Origin: an uncultured Lentisphaeria bacterium
GTDB lineage: Bacteria > Verrucomicrobiota > Lentisphaeria > Victivallales > UBA1829
DNA: 64,000 nt
Direction of reading: 5' to 3'
Assembly (NCBI GenBank): GCA_949282305.1
Contig: CASDPB010000128.1
Location: forward strand, 51,885 to 115,884
Part shown: piece by piece, positions 14,388 through 18,736 of the stretch
Position numbering within the stretch: position 1 is the stretch's first letter
How the letters are laid out: every line of letters starts with the position of its first letter
The notes under the pieces: model-generated
What the model saw: the letters and a program-made list of their open reading frames with translations, nothing else
The model's database searches: none
Told to the model about the DNA's origin: nothing
Made by a program: the position numbers and the translations under genes

Positions 14388-15176
14388 ATGAAAAAAGTTT
14401 TACCGTCCCTGTTCTTGCTGCTGGTGCTTTTTGTTTTGCCCGCTGCCGAGATGTCCTATGACTCCCTGCCTGTGAAAGTCGTCCTGTTTCCGTTCCGTGA
14501 GGCGATTCTTTCCACACAGATTGATGGAGTGGTTTCCAAATACAACTTCCGGGGCGGAGAGCGTTTCAAAAAGAACGACGTGCTTCTGATGTTGGACGAC
14601 AAGAAATACAATAACGATCTCCAGCGGATGCAATCCCTGATGAAGGAGGCGGAGCTGAATGCGAACTATGCCAGGCAGAAATGGGAGGACAACAAACGTC
14701 TGTTCACGGAGGATCTCCAAAGCGAAATTGAAGTGATGAAGTCTGAACTGGATGCGAAGGTCGGTGCCGAGCGTTACCAGACCGCCCGGATCAATTATGC
14801 GGATGCGCTGCTGCAGCTTGCCTTCTGCACCATCAAGGCACCTTTTGACGGAACAGTGGAAAAGCTGCTGACGCGCGAATTTGAAACGGTAAGGAGCGGA
14901 CAGCCCCTGATCTCCATCATTGATGACAATCAGCTGCTTGCGGTCATGAATCTGCCGACCGCCGAGCTGCCGAAGATCAAAATCGGAAAACCCGTTACCT
15001 TCAAAGTGCATGAAAACGGCAGGGTTGTGACCGGTTCGGTTTTTGAAATCGCCGGCCGCGCGGACCACCGGAGCGAGACCATTGAGATCAAGGTGCTGAT
15101 CGACAATGCGGAACATCATTTTTCCGCCGGCATGTCCGGAACTCTTATGAAAGTCGGGGACGGCGATGGAAAATAA
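14388..15176 (+). CDS. HlyD/membrane-fusion-protein family periplasmic adaptor (short, signal-anchored)
   Basis: N-terminal hydrophobic signal/anchor, a lipoyl-like motif (IKAPFDGTVEKLL), a coiled-coil segment and a beta-barrel segment. Confidence 0.85.
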   Translation: MKKVLPSLFLLLVLFVLPAAEMSYDSLPVKVVLFPFREAILSTQIDGVVSKYNFRGGERFKKNDVLLMLDDKKYNNDLQRMQSLMKEAELNANYARQKWEDNKRLFTEDLQSEIEVMKSELDAKVGAERYQTARINYADALLQLAFCTIKAPFDGTVEKLLTREFETVRSGQPLISIIDDNQLLAVMNLPTAELPKIKIGKPVTFKVHENGRVVTGSVFEIAGRADHRSETIEIKVLIDNAEHHFSAGMSGTLMKVGDGDGK

Positions 15177-16563
15177 TCTGCAGCACGAAAATGCCGAGCT
15201 GAAAGCCAGACTGCGCGCGTTTGCCGCGATCATGCGTCTGGGGCGCGACGCGTTTGAACAGCCGGATCTCACGACTGCCGGCGTGCATATAGTCAACAAT
15301 TCCCGCACGCTGCTGACTTATGAGTCCTCCTGCCTTGTCGATATGCGCGGCAAACCGTCCATTGTTGCGGAATATGCGCAGGTGGAAGTGAAGCAGCATA
15401 CGGAATATGCCGCGGACGTGAAGACATTGTGCCGGAATCTGGATTTCAGCGGCGGAATGGTCGAGCTGAGCGATCGGAACGAGACTTTGAGGAAGCTGCC
15501 GCGGAAAGCGCAGGATGCGTATGAACATTTGACGGAGGAGGGGGGCTCCCTGGTTCTGGTGCCGCTTCGTGCCACGCGCTATCAGAGTTCCCGGAAAGAA
15601 CCGTTTGTATGGATCATGGAGTTCAAGGGGACGGTTCCGCCGCATGTGGAGGCTTCCATTCCGCTGCTGGCGTCGGATTACGGCAACGCTTTCTGGAGTC
15701 ACACGCCGACGGGCGGGGCGCGGGTCTTCTTCAACTGGCTCCGGAAGATCACGCTGATCCGCGTTCTGCTGCTTCTGCTGCTTGCCTTCATCGTTGCCAT
15801 GTTCACGGTGGATGTGGAGCATACCGTTTCCGCCGAGTTCGTGGTCAAGCCCAATGCGGAATACAACTCCTACGCATGGTTCGACTGCGTGGTGAAAAAC
15901 TGCTTCTTCAACGACGGCGATGAGGTCAAGGCAGGTGATAAGATTCTGGAATATGACACGGAACGGATGCGTTTCCAGCTTGCCGCTTCCGAAGCCGCGT
16001 TCAAAGAGGCGGATGCGGAGTATGAACAGGTTCAGAAGGCTTCTTTCACGGACAAGGAAAGTCTGGGGCGGCTGAAAGTCCTTGCCTTCAAACGGGATTC
16101 CGCGCGCGTGGCGATCCAGGAGGCGAAATGGTATCTTGCGCACAGCGTCGTAACTGCTCCCGTGTCGGGGATTCTTGCCATTGCCGAGGGGAGTGCGGAC
16201 AAACTTGCCGGGCGTGCCCTGAAGCTCGGCGAGAAGCAGTTCGACATCCTTTCCAACGAAGGGATGATTGCGGAAATCATGGTAAACGAGAAAGATGCGT
16301 CTGTGCTGGAGGGAAATCCGCGCATTACGCTGTTCCTGCATACGCGGCCGGAGCTGCCGATTCCCGTGAAGATTCTCTCCTCGCGCTTTTACCCGGAGCT
16401 GACCGAACAGAATATTTACAGTTACAACGTGAAGGCGGAGATGGAGAACAATGTCCCCGGGCTTCGTTTCGGTATGCGCGGAGTCGCCCGTGTGACCGGC
16501 GAGAAAGTCAAACTCGGGTATTATCTCTTCCGCAGTCTGGTTCTCTGGTATCGCGGCGTATAA
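15166..16563 (+). CDS. HlyD-family adaptor with an unassigned ~190-aa cytoplasmic N-terminal domain
   Basis: One TM segment (ITLIRVLLLLLLAFIVAMFTV), then a lipoyl/coiled-coil/barrel layout (VVTAPVSGILAI). It overlaps the upstream gene by 11 nt. Confidence 0.8.
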   Translation: MENNLQHENAELKARLRAFAAIMRLGRDAFEQPDLTTAGVHIVNNSRTLLTYESSCLVDMRGKPSIVAEYAQVEVKQHTEYAADVKTLCRNLDFSGGMVELSDRNETLRKLPRKAQDAYEHLTEEGGSLVLVPLRATRYQSSRKEPFVWIMEFKGTVPPHVEASIPLLASDYGNAFWSHTPTGGARVFFNWLRKITLIRVLLLLLLAFIVAMFTVDVEHTVSAEFVVKPNAEYNSYAWFDCVVKNCFFNDGDEVKAGDKILEYDTERMRFQLAASEAAFKEADAEYEQVQKASFTDKESLGRLKVLAFKRDSARVAIQEAKWYLAHSVVTAPVSGILAIAEGSADKLAGRALKLGEKQFDILSNEGMIAEIMVNEKDASVLEGNPRITLFLHTRPELPIPVKILSSRFYPELTEQNIYSYNVKAEMENNVPGLRFGMRGVARVTGEKVKLGYYLFRSLVLWYRGV

Positions 16564-16570
16564 CGGCAGG

Positions 16571-18736
16571 GTGAGCATGGAACAGAACATTACACCACAG
16601 GGGGCTTCCGGGACTTCGCAGGATGCGGGGAACACGCAGGCACCGCGGCAGCAGAAAAAACCGGAGTTCCGCACCGGAGTGATCCGTTCGGACATCCAGT
16701 TCATTCCGCCCGGAGAACATGGCGACTATGCAATGATTTTCGATCCGTTGTCCGAGGCGTATTACAAACTTTCCGAGCGTTCCTGCCGGATTCTTCAGCT
16801 GATGGACCGCAGTTACGAGTTCGGCGAATTTCTGGAACGGGTCAACTCTTTCGGGATGGACTGCGACAGGGCGGAGCTTCTCGAACTGGTTAATTTCCTG
16901 CATGCGAACAATCTGGTCGCGCCGGAATACGGAACGCTGAACATGAAGGTCATGCGGCACCGTGAAATGAAGGAGAAAACCACGTTTCACCGGTTTATGG
17001 GAATGTATCTGTTTTTCCGGCTGCCCCCGATTCATCCGGACGGCTTTTTCACTGCGACGATGCCTTTCATCCGCATGTTGTTCAACAGATTCACCCTGTT
17101 TTTCATCATTGCGGCGGCGCTGGGCGGATACATCCTGCTGCTGCGTTCGTGGAACGAGGCGTATGCAACGTTCGTGAACTCTCTTTCCTGGGCGGGACTG
17201 GTGAAATATTTCTGGGCTCTGCTGATTACGAAATCTGTTCATGAGCTGGCGCACGGATATACTGCAAAAAGTTTCGGGGCGCGGGTGCGTTCCATGGGAA
17301 TCAGCTTCATCGTGTTTTACCCCCGGCTCTTTGTGGATTTGACCGATACCTGGAGGCTTTCCCGCGCAAAGCGCACCGCCTGCGACGGCGCTGGTATCGC
17401 CAGCGAGCTGATCTTCGGCGGGCTCGCCGCGATTGTATGGGTATATGCCCAGCCCGGACCTCTGAAGTCGACGATGTTCTATCTGTTCACGGTCAGTGCG
17501 CTTGGAACGCTGCTGGTCAACGGCAATCCCTTTATCCGTTACGACGGTTATTATCTGCTGTGCGACTTCATGAACATTGAGAATCTGATGCAGCGTTCCA
17601 GTGAATTCATCAAGGCGTGGAACCGCCGTTTTTTCCTCGGCATCGGTTCTTATCCCGACAGCGGCGACTGTTCCCCGCTGACTCTGTATGTCTTCGGCAC
17701 CAGCGCTTTTATTTACCGTCTTTTCCTGTATACGTCCATCATCCTGATTATTTATTTCAAGTTCACAAAGCCCGTTGCGATCATCCTGATGGCGATTGAA
17801 GTCTATACAATGCTGCTGATGCCGGTGATTTTTGAGCTGAAGGCGCTGAAGACTCTGCGCAGGAGGATGAACTGGGCGAAGGCACTGCTGACCGGGCTGG
17901 CGGTCTGCGGACTGGTTTCGCTTCTTTTCATTCCGCTTCCGTGGTCGTTTACCCTGCCTTGCGAGATTGTGCCTGAAACGAGGCGCATGGTGACGGTCAA
18001 TGAATCCGCGTTTGCGGCAAAGGAGTTGAAAGACGAGCCGTTTGCCGTGGAGAAGGGGGATCTGATTCTGCCGTTCCGCAACGTGTTTCTTGATTTCAAT
18101 ATCCGGCGCTATGAAATTTCCGCCGACCAGAACCGGGCGGAACTGAATCTTCTGCGCTCCGACACCAAGACGATCGGAGCGAGTCCCGCCGTATATGAGA
18201 AACTGCGCGCGAATCTGTTGACGCAGAATGAGATGAAGCGCCGCAGAGACAATATGGCGGTGAGGGCGGAGGCAGCGGGGATTTTTGTTCCGGAAATGGA
18301 AGGCATATCCGAAGGGCGCTGGCTGGAAAAGGGAACGGTGCTCGGCGAGATCGTGTCGAAAGAGGTTGCGGTTTACGCCTATGCTCTGGACCGCGAGGTG
18401 AACCGGATTCAGAAGGGGGATCGCGTGATGATCCGTCTGCGCGGAGAACTCAGGGAGTATCCGGGACGGATCGGTTCGCTGAATCCCGTGGCGGTCAAGT
18501 TCCGCGACTCGACTCTTGTGCAGGCGATGGGCGGCATCGTCCCCTGTTATCCGAATGAGAAAACTCGTGAATTCACGCCCGTGAACGTGCTTTACTGCAT
18601 TACCGTGATTCCGGATGAGCCGATCCTCTGCCGTTCGGGGCGTACCGGGCAGGCGGAAGTCAGGAAGACCTACCGCATGTCCGTGGAACTTGTCCGTTCG
18701 CTGATGCACATCTTCTACCGCGAATTCTCATTCTGA
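16571..18736 (+). CDS. PqqD-like / peptidase M50 (site-2 protease-like) / HlyD-like fusion membrane protein
   Basis: HELAH and NGNPFIRYDG zinc-protease motifs sit in a polytopic region. The N-terminal segment is PqqD-like (FDPLSEAYYKLSERSCRILQLMD...). The C-terminus is adaptor-like. An alternative ATG start is at 16577. Confidence 0.8.
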   Translation: MSMEQNITPQGASGTSQDAGNTQAPRQQKKPEFRTGVIRSDIQFIPPGEHGDYAMIFDPLSEAYYKLSERSCRILQLMDRSYEFGEFLERVNSFGMDCDRAELLELVNFLHANNLVAPEYGTLNMKVMRHREMKEKTTFHRFMGMYLFFRLPPIHPDGFFTATMPFIRMLFNRFTLFFIIAAALGGYILLLRSWNEAYATFVNSLSWAGLVKYFWALLITKSVHELAHGYTAKSFGARVRSMGISFIVFYPRLFVDLTDTWRLSRAKRTACDGAGIASELIFGGLAAIVWVYAQPGPLKSTMFYLFTVSALGTLLVNGNPFIRYDGYYLLCDFMNIENLMQRSSEFIKAWNRRFFLGIGSYPDSGDCSPLTLYVFGTSAFIYRLFLYTSIILIIYFKFTKPVAIILMAIEVYTMLLMPVIFELKALKTLRRRMNWAKALLTGLAVCGLVSLLFIPLPWSFTLPCEIVPETRRMVTVNESAFAAKELKDEPFAVEKGDLILPFRNVFLDFNIRRYEISADQNRAELNLLRSDTKTIGASPAVYEKLRANLLTQNEMKRRRDNMAVRAEAAGIFVPEMEGISEGRWLEKGTVLGEIVSKEVAVYAYALDREVNRIQKGDRVMIRLRGELREYPGRIGSLNPVAVKFRDSTLVQAMGGIVPCYPNEKTREFTPVNVLYCITVIPDEPILCRSGRTGQAEVRKTYRMSVELVRSLMHIFYREFSF

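Follow-up and report, generated by a model that had tools for sequence, protein, structure and literature searches.

A 64,000-nucleotide stretch of DNA from an uncultured Lentisphaeria bacterium (contig CASDPB010000128.1, positions 51,885 to 115,884 of the forward strand; hereafter, the window) carries a cassette of three plus-strand genes, each encoding a membrane fusion protein (MFP) module, which in the third gene product is fused to an intramembrane metalloprotease. On balance, this cassette is probably the inner-membrane and periplasmic part of a four-component, TolC-dependent apparatus, in which a leader-guided intramembrane peptidase is mounted on a TolC-type duct. The evidence comprises the domain architectures and catalytic motifs of the three proteins, the conservation of their gene order across phyla, the adjacency of genes for TolC-like outer-membrane factors (OMFs) and for leader-bearing proteins in related loci, a split arrangement in the lineage of the window, and purifying selection on all three genes.

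The first two genes overlap by 11 nt, and a 7-nt gap precedes the third. We refer to the products as mfpA (P1), mfpB (P2) and P3. The features of the cassette are as follows; AF2 denotes AlphaFold2 models, RRE the recognition element for leaders of peptides that are made on ribosomes and then altered post-translationally (RiPPs), and S2P a site-2 protease.

14388..15176, plus strand: mfpA, short periplasmic adaptor of 262 amino acids (TIGR01730, Pfam HlyD_3, HlyD_D23)
15166..16563, plus strand: mfpB, 465 amino acids, with a cytoplasmic alpha/beta domain, one transmembrane helix and a periplasmic MFP module (AF2 model, Foldseek)
16571..18736, plus strand: P3, fusion protein of 721 amino acids: RRE-like domain, then site-2/M50 intramembrane metalloprotease, then MFP domain (NF041824, M50, HlyD_3, AF2)
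16694..16906, plus strand: putative RRE-like (PqqD-type winged-helix) cytoplasmic domain of P3, residues 42-112 (model topology, NF041824 alignment)
17240..17254, plus strand: HExxH zinc site of P3, H224-E225-L-A-H228 (invariant in the alignment)
17519..17548, plus strand: second S2P signature of P3, NxxPxxxxDG at N317-G326, in which D325 is the third zinc ligand (invariant in the alignment)
17948..18670, plus strand: periplasmic MFP module of P3, residues 460-700, with an alpha-hairpin at residues 505-560 (Foldseek, profile matches to MacA chains)

The AF2 model of P3 (pLDDT 80) consists of three parts: residues 43-112, a helical membrane domain (residues 122-452) and the MFP domain (residues 460-700). 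The helices that carry the zinc motifs are predicted to lie within the membrane domain, and both S2P signatures are intact. H224, E225 and H228 of the HExxH motif are invariant in 15 aligned homologues and in five relatives of 26-28% identity; N317, N319, P320, R323, Y324, D325 and G326 are invariant in the same 15-homologue alignment, and the second signature is kept as NLNPxxxxD[GA] in the distant homologues. All 15 aligned homologues match Pfam M50 at E≤1 (best E, 2.2e-9). The preliminary description of this DNA had named the M50 protein as the only inner-membrane enzymatic component, and this is supported. No ABC ATPase, MFS transporter or TolC/OEP gene was detected in the whole 64 kb (tblastn, Pfam).

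Residues 42-417 of P3 align with positions 7-367 of NF041824, the model of the daptide intramembrane metalloprotease (150.6 bits, E 6e-44), and the RRE-like region falls on the N-terminal (RRE) end of that model. This region is predicted to contain three strands and three helices in the order E43-45, E54-58, E63-67, H69-76, H84-93 and H100-112 (pLDDT 73-86). Profile comparison makes P3 homologous to leader peptidases of the daptide and YydH types but a member of neither family, since it lies below the cutoffs of both models (NF041824 and NF058609) and in a different gene context. The C-terminal module matches HlyD_3 with 28.4 bits and, in Foldseek, MacA at E 4.3e-12, the matches to MacA, MexA, ZneB and EmrA spanning E 4e-12 to 1e-10. 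When P3 was compared with PDB sequences by profile search, only MFP chains were found, with no S2P or RRE entry at E≤1. The family is very large: phmmer against 1.84 billion representative proteins returned 2,827 clusters (50% identity) at E≤1e-30, rising to 6,497 at E≤1e-10. Among the best 150 matches, the majority are proteins of about 700 amino acids aligned end to end, and the named members include a Rhodospirillaceae and a Chlamydiales metagenome-assembled genome (MAG).

In mfpA, an N-terminal signal or anchor segment (hydropathy peak at residues 4-22) is followed by an MFP module that makes up the rest of the protein. With 144.8 bits against the RND_mfp model TIGR01730 (cutoff 94.9), mfpA is an MFP adaptor, and it also matches HlyD_3 (9e-20) and HlyD_D23 in Pfam. 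mfpB gave no Pfam match and 53 bits with TIGR01730, under the cutoff; its AF2 model (pLDDT 86.7) matches MacA (3fpp) in Foldseek at E 3.8e-15, and its profile matches the TriAB fusion 6vej at E 3e-4. According to the model, a cytoplasmic alpha/beta domain (residues 1-180) precedes a transmembrane helix (residues 195-213) and an MFP module (residues 220-445) with an alpha-hairpin at residues 266-325. From the secondary-structure order only, we infer that this N-terminal domain is GAF-like; the Rhodospirillaceae homologue of mfpB has a weak precomputed Pfam GAF match. Against TIGR01843, the model of HlyD-type type I secretion adaptors (cutoff 208.65 bits), P1 and P2 scored just 32.5 and 16.6 bits. 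The claim of three tightly packed genes, each with an MFP module, was thus borne out by TIGR01730, by HlyD_3 and by the AF2/Foldseek matches to MacA, and the triad recurs in 70 of the 79 loci described below.

The reading frames were chosen with a codon-usage log-odds model trained on the Pfam-supported genes of the window, which favoured the plus-strand frames of the cassette over long antisense open reading frames (ORFs). These shadow ORFs lie on the minus strand at 14400-15308 (302 amino acids), 15145-16704 (519 amino acids) and 16508-18709 (733 amino acids); others accompany many further genes of the window, and gene calling by the longest ORF picks them. Because the codon-usage model prefers the plus strand, they look like artefacts of codon bias. 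The dN/dS ratios of mfpA, mfpB and P3, including those from the comparison with the sister locus L002, are 0.06-0.095, indicating purifying selection on all three genes. Judged by these ratios, the selection is strong, and the cassette appears to be still functional.

Related loci were collected from species-representative genomes with a P3 profile (80 loci) and via two homologues from the first homology search (5 loci), and their genes were counted in a tblastn census. The triad was counted in the 79 of these 85 loci that have enough upstream sequence, and genes within 10 kb were taken as neighbours. Almost all of the loci belong to Lentisphaerota (Victivallales), where the cassette occurs as several paralogues in a genome; the cultured Victivallis vadensis DSM 14823 has three (L015, L022 and L035). 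The mfpA-mfpB-P3 triad is complete and in order, with mfpA as the opening gene, in 70 of the 79 informative loci. A TolC-like OMF gene is found in 33/85 loci, usually adjacent to the cassette (Pfam OEP, 76-98 bits), whereas the classic energisers are rare: a type I secretion HlyD (TIGR01843; 298.6 bits in the subgroup of L046) together with an ABC gene in 7/85, any ABC ATPase in 11/85 and an RND transporter in 1/85. Since type I secretion ABC/HlyD genes lie near only seven of the loci, the missing classic energiser is a trait of the family. We also sampled five distant loci (P3 identity 26-28%; a Rhodospirillaceae MAG and metagenomes). Each of them has an OMF gene together with mfpA, mfpB and P3, and within the module all five lack ABC, RND and MFS genes. 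Conservation of the three-gene order across phyla, which the preliminary description had put forward for checking, is therefore seen in both the informative and the distant loci.

These counts bear on the earlier characterization of the cassette as adaptor-only. The term is misleading, since a TolC-like gene stands beside the homologues in 33/85 and 5/5 distant loci, and in the relatives of 87% identity all of these genes form one string. Measured against the preliminary description's own condition for a trivially incomplete pump, TolC is often adjacent to the homologues and ABC or RND partners are not; the cassette is therefore an incomplete copy of a non-classic system rather than of a classic pump.

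The cassette itself contains no energised inner-membrane transporter of the ABC, RND or MFS type. It might be suspected of being a trivially incomplete efflux pump, with adaptors that serve a distant RND, ABC or MFS transporter and an M50 domain that is incidental. mfpA does exceed the RND_mfp family cutoff, and the window has one pump, an AcrB-type RND gene (53101-56247, minus strand, 958 bits) 34 kb from the cassette. However, this AcrB has its own adaptor at 56255-58045, an RND gene occurs near the cassette in a single locus of the 85, and the S2P fusion with its intact catalytic motifs is kept down to 26% identity and in thousands of clusters. We consider this reading very improbable, and borrowing of the window's AcrB was rejected because of its own adaptor and because RND genes are unlinked to the cassette in related loci. 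The adaptor of AcrB (minus strand) is unusually long (596 amino acids), with an MFP module in its C-terminal half only and no OMF gene alongside.

The recurrent neighbour of the cassette in related loci is a large protein with an N-terminal leader-like motif. An ORF of 1,000 to >3,000 amino acids adjoins the cassette in at least 30 loci, and the domains of these proteins include DUF4347, YDG, POMP-repeat and beta-helix. Among close relatives, every large neighbour with its start inside the locus opens with [FL][KR]LE[DE]R[VI]LF[DE]AAAAAE, and across close and distant loci the motif takes the form LE[PDE]RxxF[DE][GA]A, in adjacent proteins of 137 to >8,700 amino acids. One example of a leader peptide of these proteins is KIEIFKLEDRVLFEAAGAAEAVEAA. 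A hidden Markov model of the motif gave matches in 23 loci (E 1e-7 to 1e-15), in every case where an ORF next to the cassette begins, including two smaller ORFs of 203 and 277 amino acids. At the distant loci, three neighbours have visible starts: ...ALEPRLTFDGAAA (1,360 amino acids), ...ALEPRIAFDAA (1,433 amino acids, DUF4347) and ...ELEERIVFDAA (572 amino acids, PQQ repeats). In addition, a P3 homologue without mfpA and mfpB partners is followed by a gene for an 8,747-amino-acid protein with the leader motif. Since the distant loci keep the OMF gene and the triad, and their neighbours with visible starts bear the motif, the module and its link to the motif are evidently conserved across phyla.

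A homology search with the 70-amino-acid leader returned gene fragments only. The motif (LEPRLTFDGAAA in L096, LEPRIAFDAA in L097) resembles the name of the LEPR-XLL N-terminal domain; NCBIfam did not confirm this lead, as its LEPR-XLL model gave no match to five leader sequences even at E≤10. At the other end, the giant proteins of 15 loci carry F[KQ]xD[FL]ExxL[DE]E at their extreme C-terminus, no more than 25 residues from the stop codon (for example, L001 5412-5465 and L046 7911-7958), which could be a secretion signal.

The recurrence of these neighbours also bears on a role in signalling by regulated intramembrane proteolysis, in which the S2P would cut a membrane regulator, the MFP-like and GAF-like domains would act as sensors and nothing would be exported. 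S2P proteases classically work in signalling cascades (RseP, SpoIVFB), and the cytoplasmic domain of mfpB is GAF-like. Nevertheless, no anti-sigma or sigma factor genes recur beside the cassette, the recurrent neighbours being OMF genes and genes for leader-bearing large proteins, and alpha-hairpins of the TolC-docking type are kept in all three MFP modules. This role thus seems improbable.

Several features of the related loci accompany these genes. The OMFs at L018 2268-4466, L001 5474-7678 and L089 10001-12196 (about 732-738 amino acids) have C-terminal Sel1/TPR repeats, which are unusual for outer-membrane factors. A small conserved protein (82-160 amino acids, for example MSEKKEIFADGIGQIHFAGGMVRYDFVTLQP...) without a Pfam or NCBIfam match is encoded between the OMF gene and the cassette at L004 3910-4158 and L049 1889-2161 (minus strand), and also in L044, L060, L061, L073 and L080; it is absent from the window. 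A rhomboid protease lies between the client and the OMF gene at L096 5535-6209, a PAS-GGDEF-EAL protein follows the client at L097 16452-19343, and genes for FAD-binding and tryptophan-halogenase proteins precede P3 at L100 221-3184.

A search for the leader motif in all six frames of the window gave no match, and the TolC-family partner is likewise absent from the window. The arrangement in close relatives suggests where both may be found. In the relatives of 87-88% identity (L001, L003 and L004), the order is OMF' (558 amino acids), a giant protein with the leader (>3,300 amino acids), OMF (734 amino acids, Sel1 repeats), mfpA, mfpB and P3, and DNA similarity to the window runs from 14310/14335 to 18736, ending exactly at the P3 stop codon. 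The sister genome UBA11452 (L002) has a cassette of the window type followed by the lipid operon (95% amino acid and 91% nucleotide identity). On another contig (DPDG01000113), it encodes OMF' (551 amino acids), a 3,178-amino-acid giant starting with MRKQRRQRKIEIFKLEDRVLFEAAGAAE, and an OMF of 731 amino acids that is 91% identical to that of L001. At this second locus, the OMF gene has no cassette after it, and the 10 kb upstream contain neither an ABC nor a HlyD gene. The split recurs in a second relative, HRGM_Genome_2866. Since DNA similarity ends at the P3 stop codon and the partners in UBA11452 are on another contig, the cassette of the window is best seen as the detached half of an operon. 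The idea of a borrowed distant partner, offered in the preliminary description, would then be right for the outer-membrane channel, which by analogy with the sister genome is probably encoded elsewhere in the genome, and wrong for the RND pump, whose AcrB has an adaptor of its own. Two different TolC-like genes (encoding about 551-558 and 731-734 amino acids) also flank a single giant gene at L091 8750-20401 and L094 8744-20401.

The DNA on either side of the cassette contains the following features.

13359-14129: acyl-ACP thioesterase, on the other side of the cassette from the lipid operon
14312..14380, plus strand: conserved non-coding leader of the cassette (69 nt, 86-94% identical in L002, L001, L003 and L004)
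14330-14358, plus strand: sigma-70-like box, TTGATT-17-TATAGT (promoter-like match)
18803-27556, same strand as the cassette: lipid operon, after a 66-nt gap from P3

Farther upstream than 14312-14380, the DNA differs in each of L002, L001, L003 and L004. Sigma-70-like matches in this region are not more numerous than expected by chance; another promoter-like box lies inside the gap between P3 and the lipid operon. An Rfam scan of the whole window, including the gap upstream of the cassette, gave no match. The lipid operon encodes a TIGR04072 radical SAM protein (469 bits), a GT2-DUF2062 protein, an LpxL-like acyltransferase, a ketosynthase (KS), a KS-like protein, an acyl carrier protein, two proteins without assignment (200 and 414 amino acids) and an AMP-ligase. 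TIGR04072, named for a lipid biosynthesis B12-binding/radical SAM protein, is of the type found in ladderane-associated clusters.

The cassette had been proposed to be a dedicated processing and export device for the product of this lipid/polyketide-like operon. The two share a strand across a gap of 66 nt, the acyl-ACP thioesterase stands upstream and the TIGR04072-bearing operon downstream, and the junction is common to L002 and L005. Against this, lipid genes are missing from 83 of the 85 related loci, the window, L002 and L005 being the only places where operon and cassette adjoin, and the similarity to the 87% relatives stops with P3. The cassette also has a conserved upstream region of its own, with a separate promoter-like box ahead of the lipid operon, and P3 is akin to peptide leader peptidases and not to lipid transporters. 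Such a device is hardly credible, and the candidate was rejected because the synteny is not conserved. Going by gene neighbourhood, the lipid operon is a lineage-specific neighbour and not a client, and the cassette is not to be annotated as part of a lipid biosynthesis cluster; since the thioesterase lies on its other side, the cassette may have been inserted into one. On the same kind of evidence, lipid export, a borrowed RND pump and signalling are each disfavoured by synteny. Elsewhere in the window, the minus strand encodes a NuoF-like flavoprotein and an [FeFe]-hydrogenase large subunit (37865-41811), as would fit an anaerobic fermenter. A 1,069-amino-acid SNF2-family helicase is encoded at 31141-34350, also on the minus strand.

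The cassette resembles several known systems in part. It shares with tripartite efflux and type I assemblies (MacAB-TolC, HlyBD-TolC, EmrAB-TolC) the MFP folds with alpha-hairpins (matched by Foldseek to MacA, MexA and EmrA with E values between 1e-10 and 1e-15) and, in its relatives, an OMF gene in the same operon, and the layout beside a giant client is like that of type I secretion adhesin operons. It differs from them in having no ABC, RND or MFS component: the partner in the inner membrane is instead a site-2 metalloprotease in covalent fusion with an MFP, and there are three different MFP modules, one with a cytoplasmic GAF-like domain. Co-assembly of different MFP paralogues in one pump has a precedent in TriABC-OpmH, which, unlike the cassette, has an RND transporter, two rather than three MFP types and no protease.

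According to its published description, the daptide protease combines an N-terminal RRE with an intramembrane site-2 protease and takes off the leader peptide. Like daptide MpaP (NF041824) and YydH/LiaK (NF058609), P3 has an RRE-like domain followed by an HExxH S2P, with predicted recognition and removal of an N-terminal leader. Unlike them, it scores below both cutoffs, carries an extra C-terminal MFP domain and is accompanied by two partner MFPs and an OMF. The proteins presumed to be its clients measure 137 to >8,700 amino acids, and neither tailoring enzymes of RiPP pathways nor genes for short precursors lie nearby; the daptide context (short precursors ending in Thr and genes for a decarboxylase, an aminotransferase and a methyltransferase) was absent near the cassette, in the window and in the related loci. 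Peptidase-containing ABC transporters of the C39 type with HlyD-type adaptors and TolC (colicin V CvaAB-TolC) also cut a leader at the inner membrane, coupled by an adaptor to a TolC duct. However, the cassette has a metalloprotease in place of a cysteine protease and no nucleotide-binding domains, and the two are unrelated in sequence, so that the analogy is functional only. The LapA/LapG/LapD system similarly combines a giant repetitive surface protein bearing a special N-terminal element, a dedicated protease and an operon-encoded TolC-like channel. LapG is a periplasmic cysteine protease that cuts at an internal di-alanine site, whereas the enzyme here is an intramembrane zinc protease that has its putative recognition domain in the cytoplasm, and the motif stands at the extreme N-terminus.

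In the apparatus that we favour, the RRE-like domain of P3 would bind the N-terminal LE[PDE]RxxF[DE][GA]A motif of the client, as RRE-S2P proteases do with RiPP leaders, and the S2P domain would cut the leader at the membrane. The MFP modules of mfpA, mfpB and the P3 C-terminus, all of which bear an alpha-hairpin, would form a periplasmic sleeve that docks on the OMF, and removal of the leader would be coupled to the passage of the client through the OMF or to its release. Energy might come from an unlinked type I secretion ABC transporter (adjacent in 7/85 loci), or none might be used.

The following observations weigh against this apparatus. We know of no mechanism by which an S2P domain could move a protein of several thousand residues over the inner membrane, and the module encodes no source of energy. 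The 64-kb window contains neither a client nor an OMF gene, so that the function would need partners encoded in trans, known only from the sister genome. In about half of the Lentisphaerota loci, the 10 kb around the cassette show no OMF and no large protein, and seven loci have a full type I secretion ABC-HlyD set beside the cassette. At the protein level, P3 scores 24.8 bits with Pfam M50 (PF02163), just under the gathering cutoff of 27.2, stays below the 300-bit equivalog cutoff of NF041824 and reaches 45.3 bits with NF058609, the model of the YydH/LiaK epipeptide maturation protease, whose cutoff is 225. Pfam PqqD finds no match in P3, and the RRE assignment therefore rests on homology to the daptide protease and on the predicted topology, so that the RRE at residues 42-112 stays putative.

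Because of the seven loci with an ABC-HlyD set, the cassette may instead assist type I secretion as an accessory without being a conduit itself, which is the main rival to the peptidase-on-duct apparatus. An ABC-HlyD-OMF exporter, encoded elsewhere in most genomes, would thread the giants C-terminus first, and the RRE-S2P-MFP protein would hold the N-terminal leader, the last part to exit, at the inner membrane and then cleave it for release or for a switch from the anchored to the free state, by a logic like the LapG/LapD control of LapA. This would solve the energy problem. In the seven loci, ABC, type I secretion HlyD (TIGR01843, 298 bits), OMF, giant, mfpA, mfpB and P3 form one string; the C-terminal motif of the giants could be a type I secretion signal; and the PAS-GGDEF-EAL gene after the client in L097 fits as well. 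On the other hand, 78 of the 85 loci and all five distant ones have no type I secretion ABC/HlyD gene within 10 kb, many of them with an OMF gene of their own, and the accessory role leaves unexplained why a release protease needs three hairpin-bearing MFP modules. We regard it as possible but not probable.

A bolder form of the peptidase-on-duct apparatus is that the OMF, mfpA, GAF-mfpB and RRE-S2P-MFP constitute a self-contained, ATPase-free protein secretion system in several phyla, in which the protease would recognise the LE[PD]RxxFD[GA]A leader on giant proteins, cleave it and hand the protein into the adaptor/TolC duct, taking the place of an ABC transporter. We put this forward as a speculative and rather unlikely proposal. 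Literature searches limited to open-access papers turned up no account of S2P-MFP fusions or of a link between them and LE[PD]R-motif proteins, and an earlier description elsewhere is possible.

If the apparatus exists as proposed, it would provide the first functional context for the RRE-S2P-MFP fusions, a very large uncharacterised family (the 2,827 clusters above), and for the conserved LE[PD]R-type N-terminal motif of giant bacterial surface proteins. It would also mean that not only a transporter but also an intramembrane protease can serve as the base of TolC-docking adaptors. Small natural clients, such as the 203-amino-acid protein of L022 and the 572-amino-acid one of L100, are available for reconstitution, and experiments could then test what happens to the N-termini of megadalton adhesin-like proteins as these are secreted or released.

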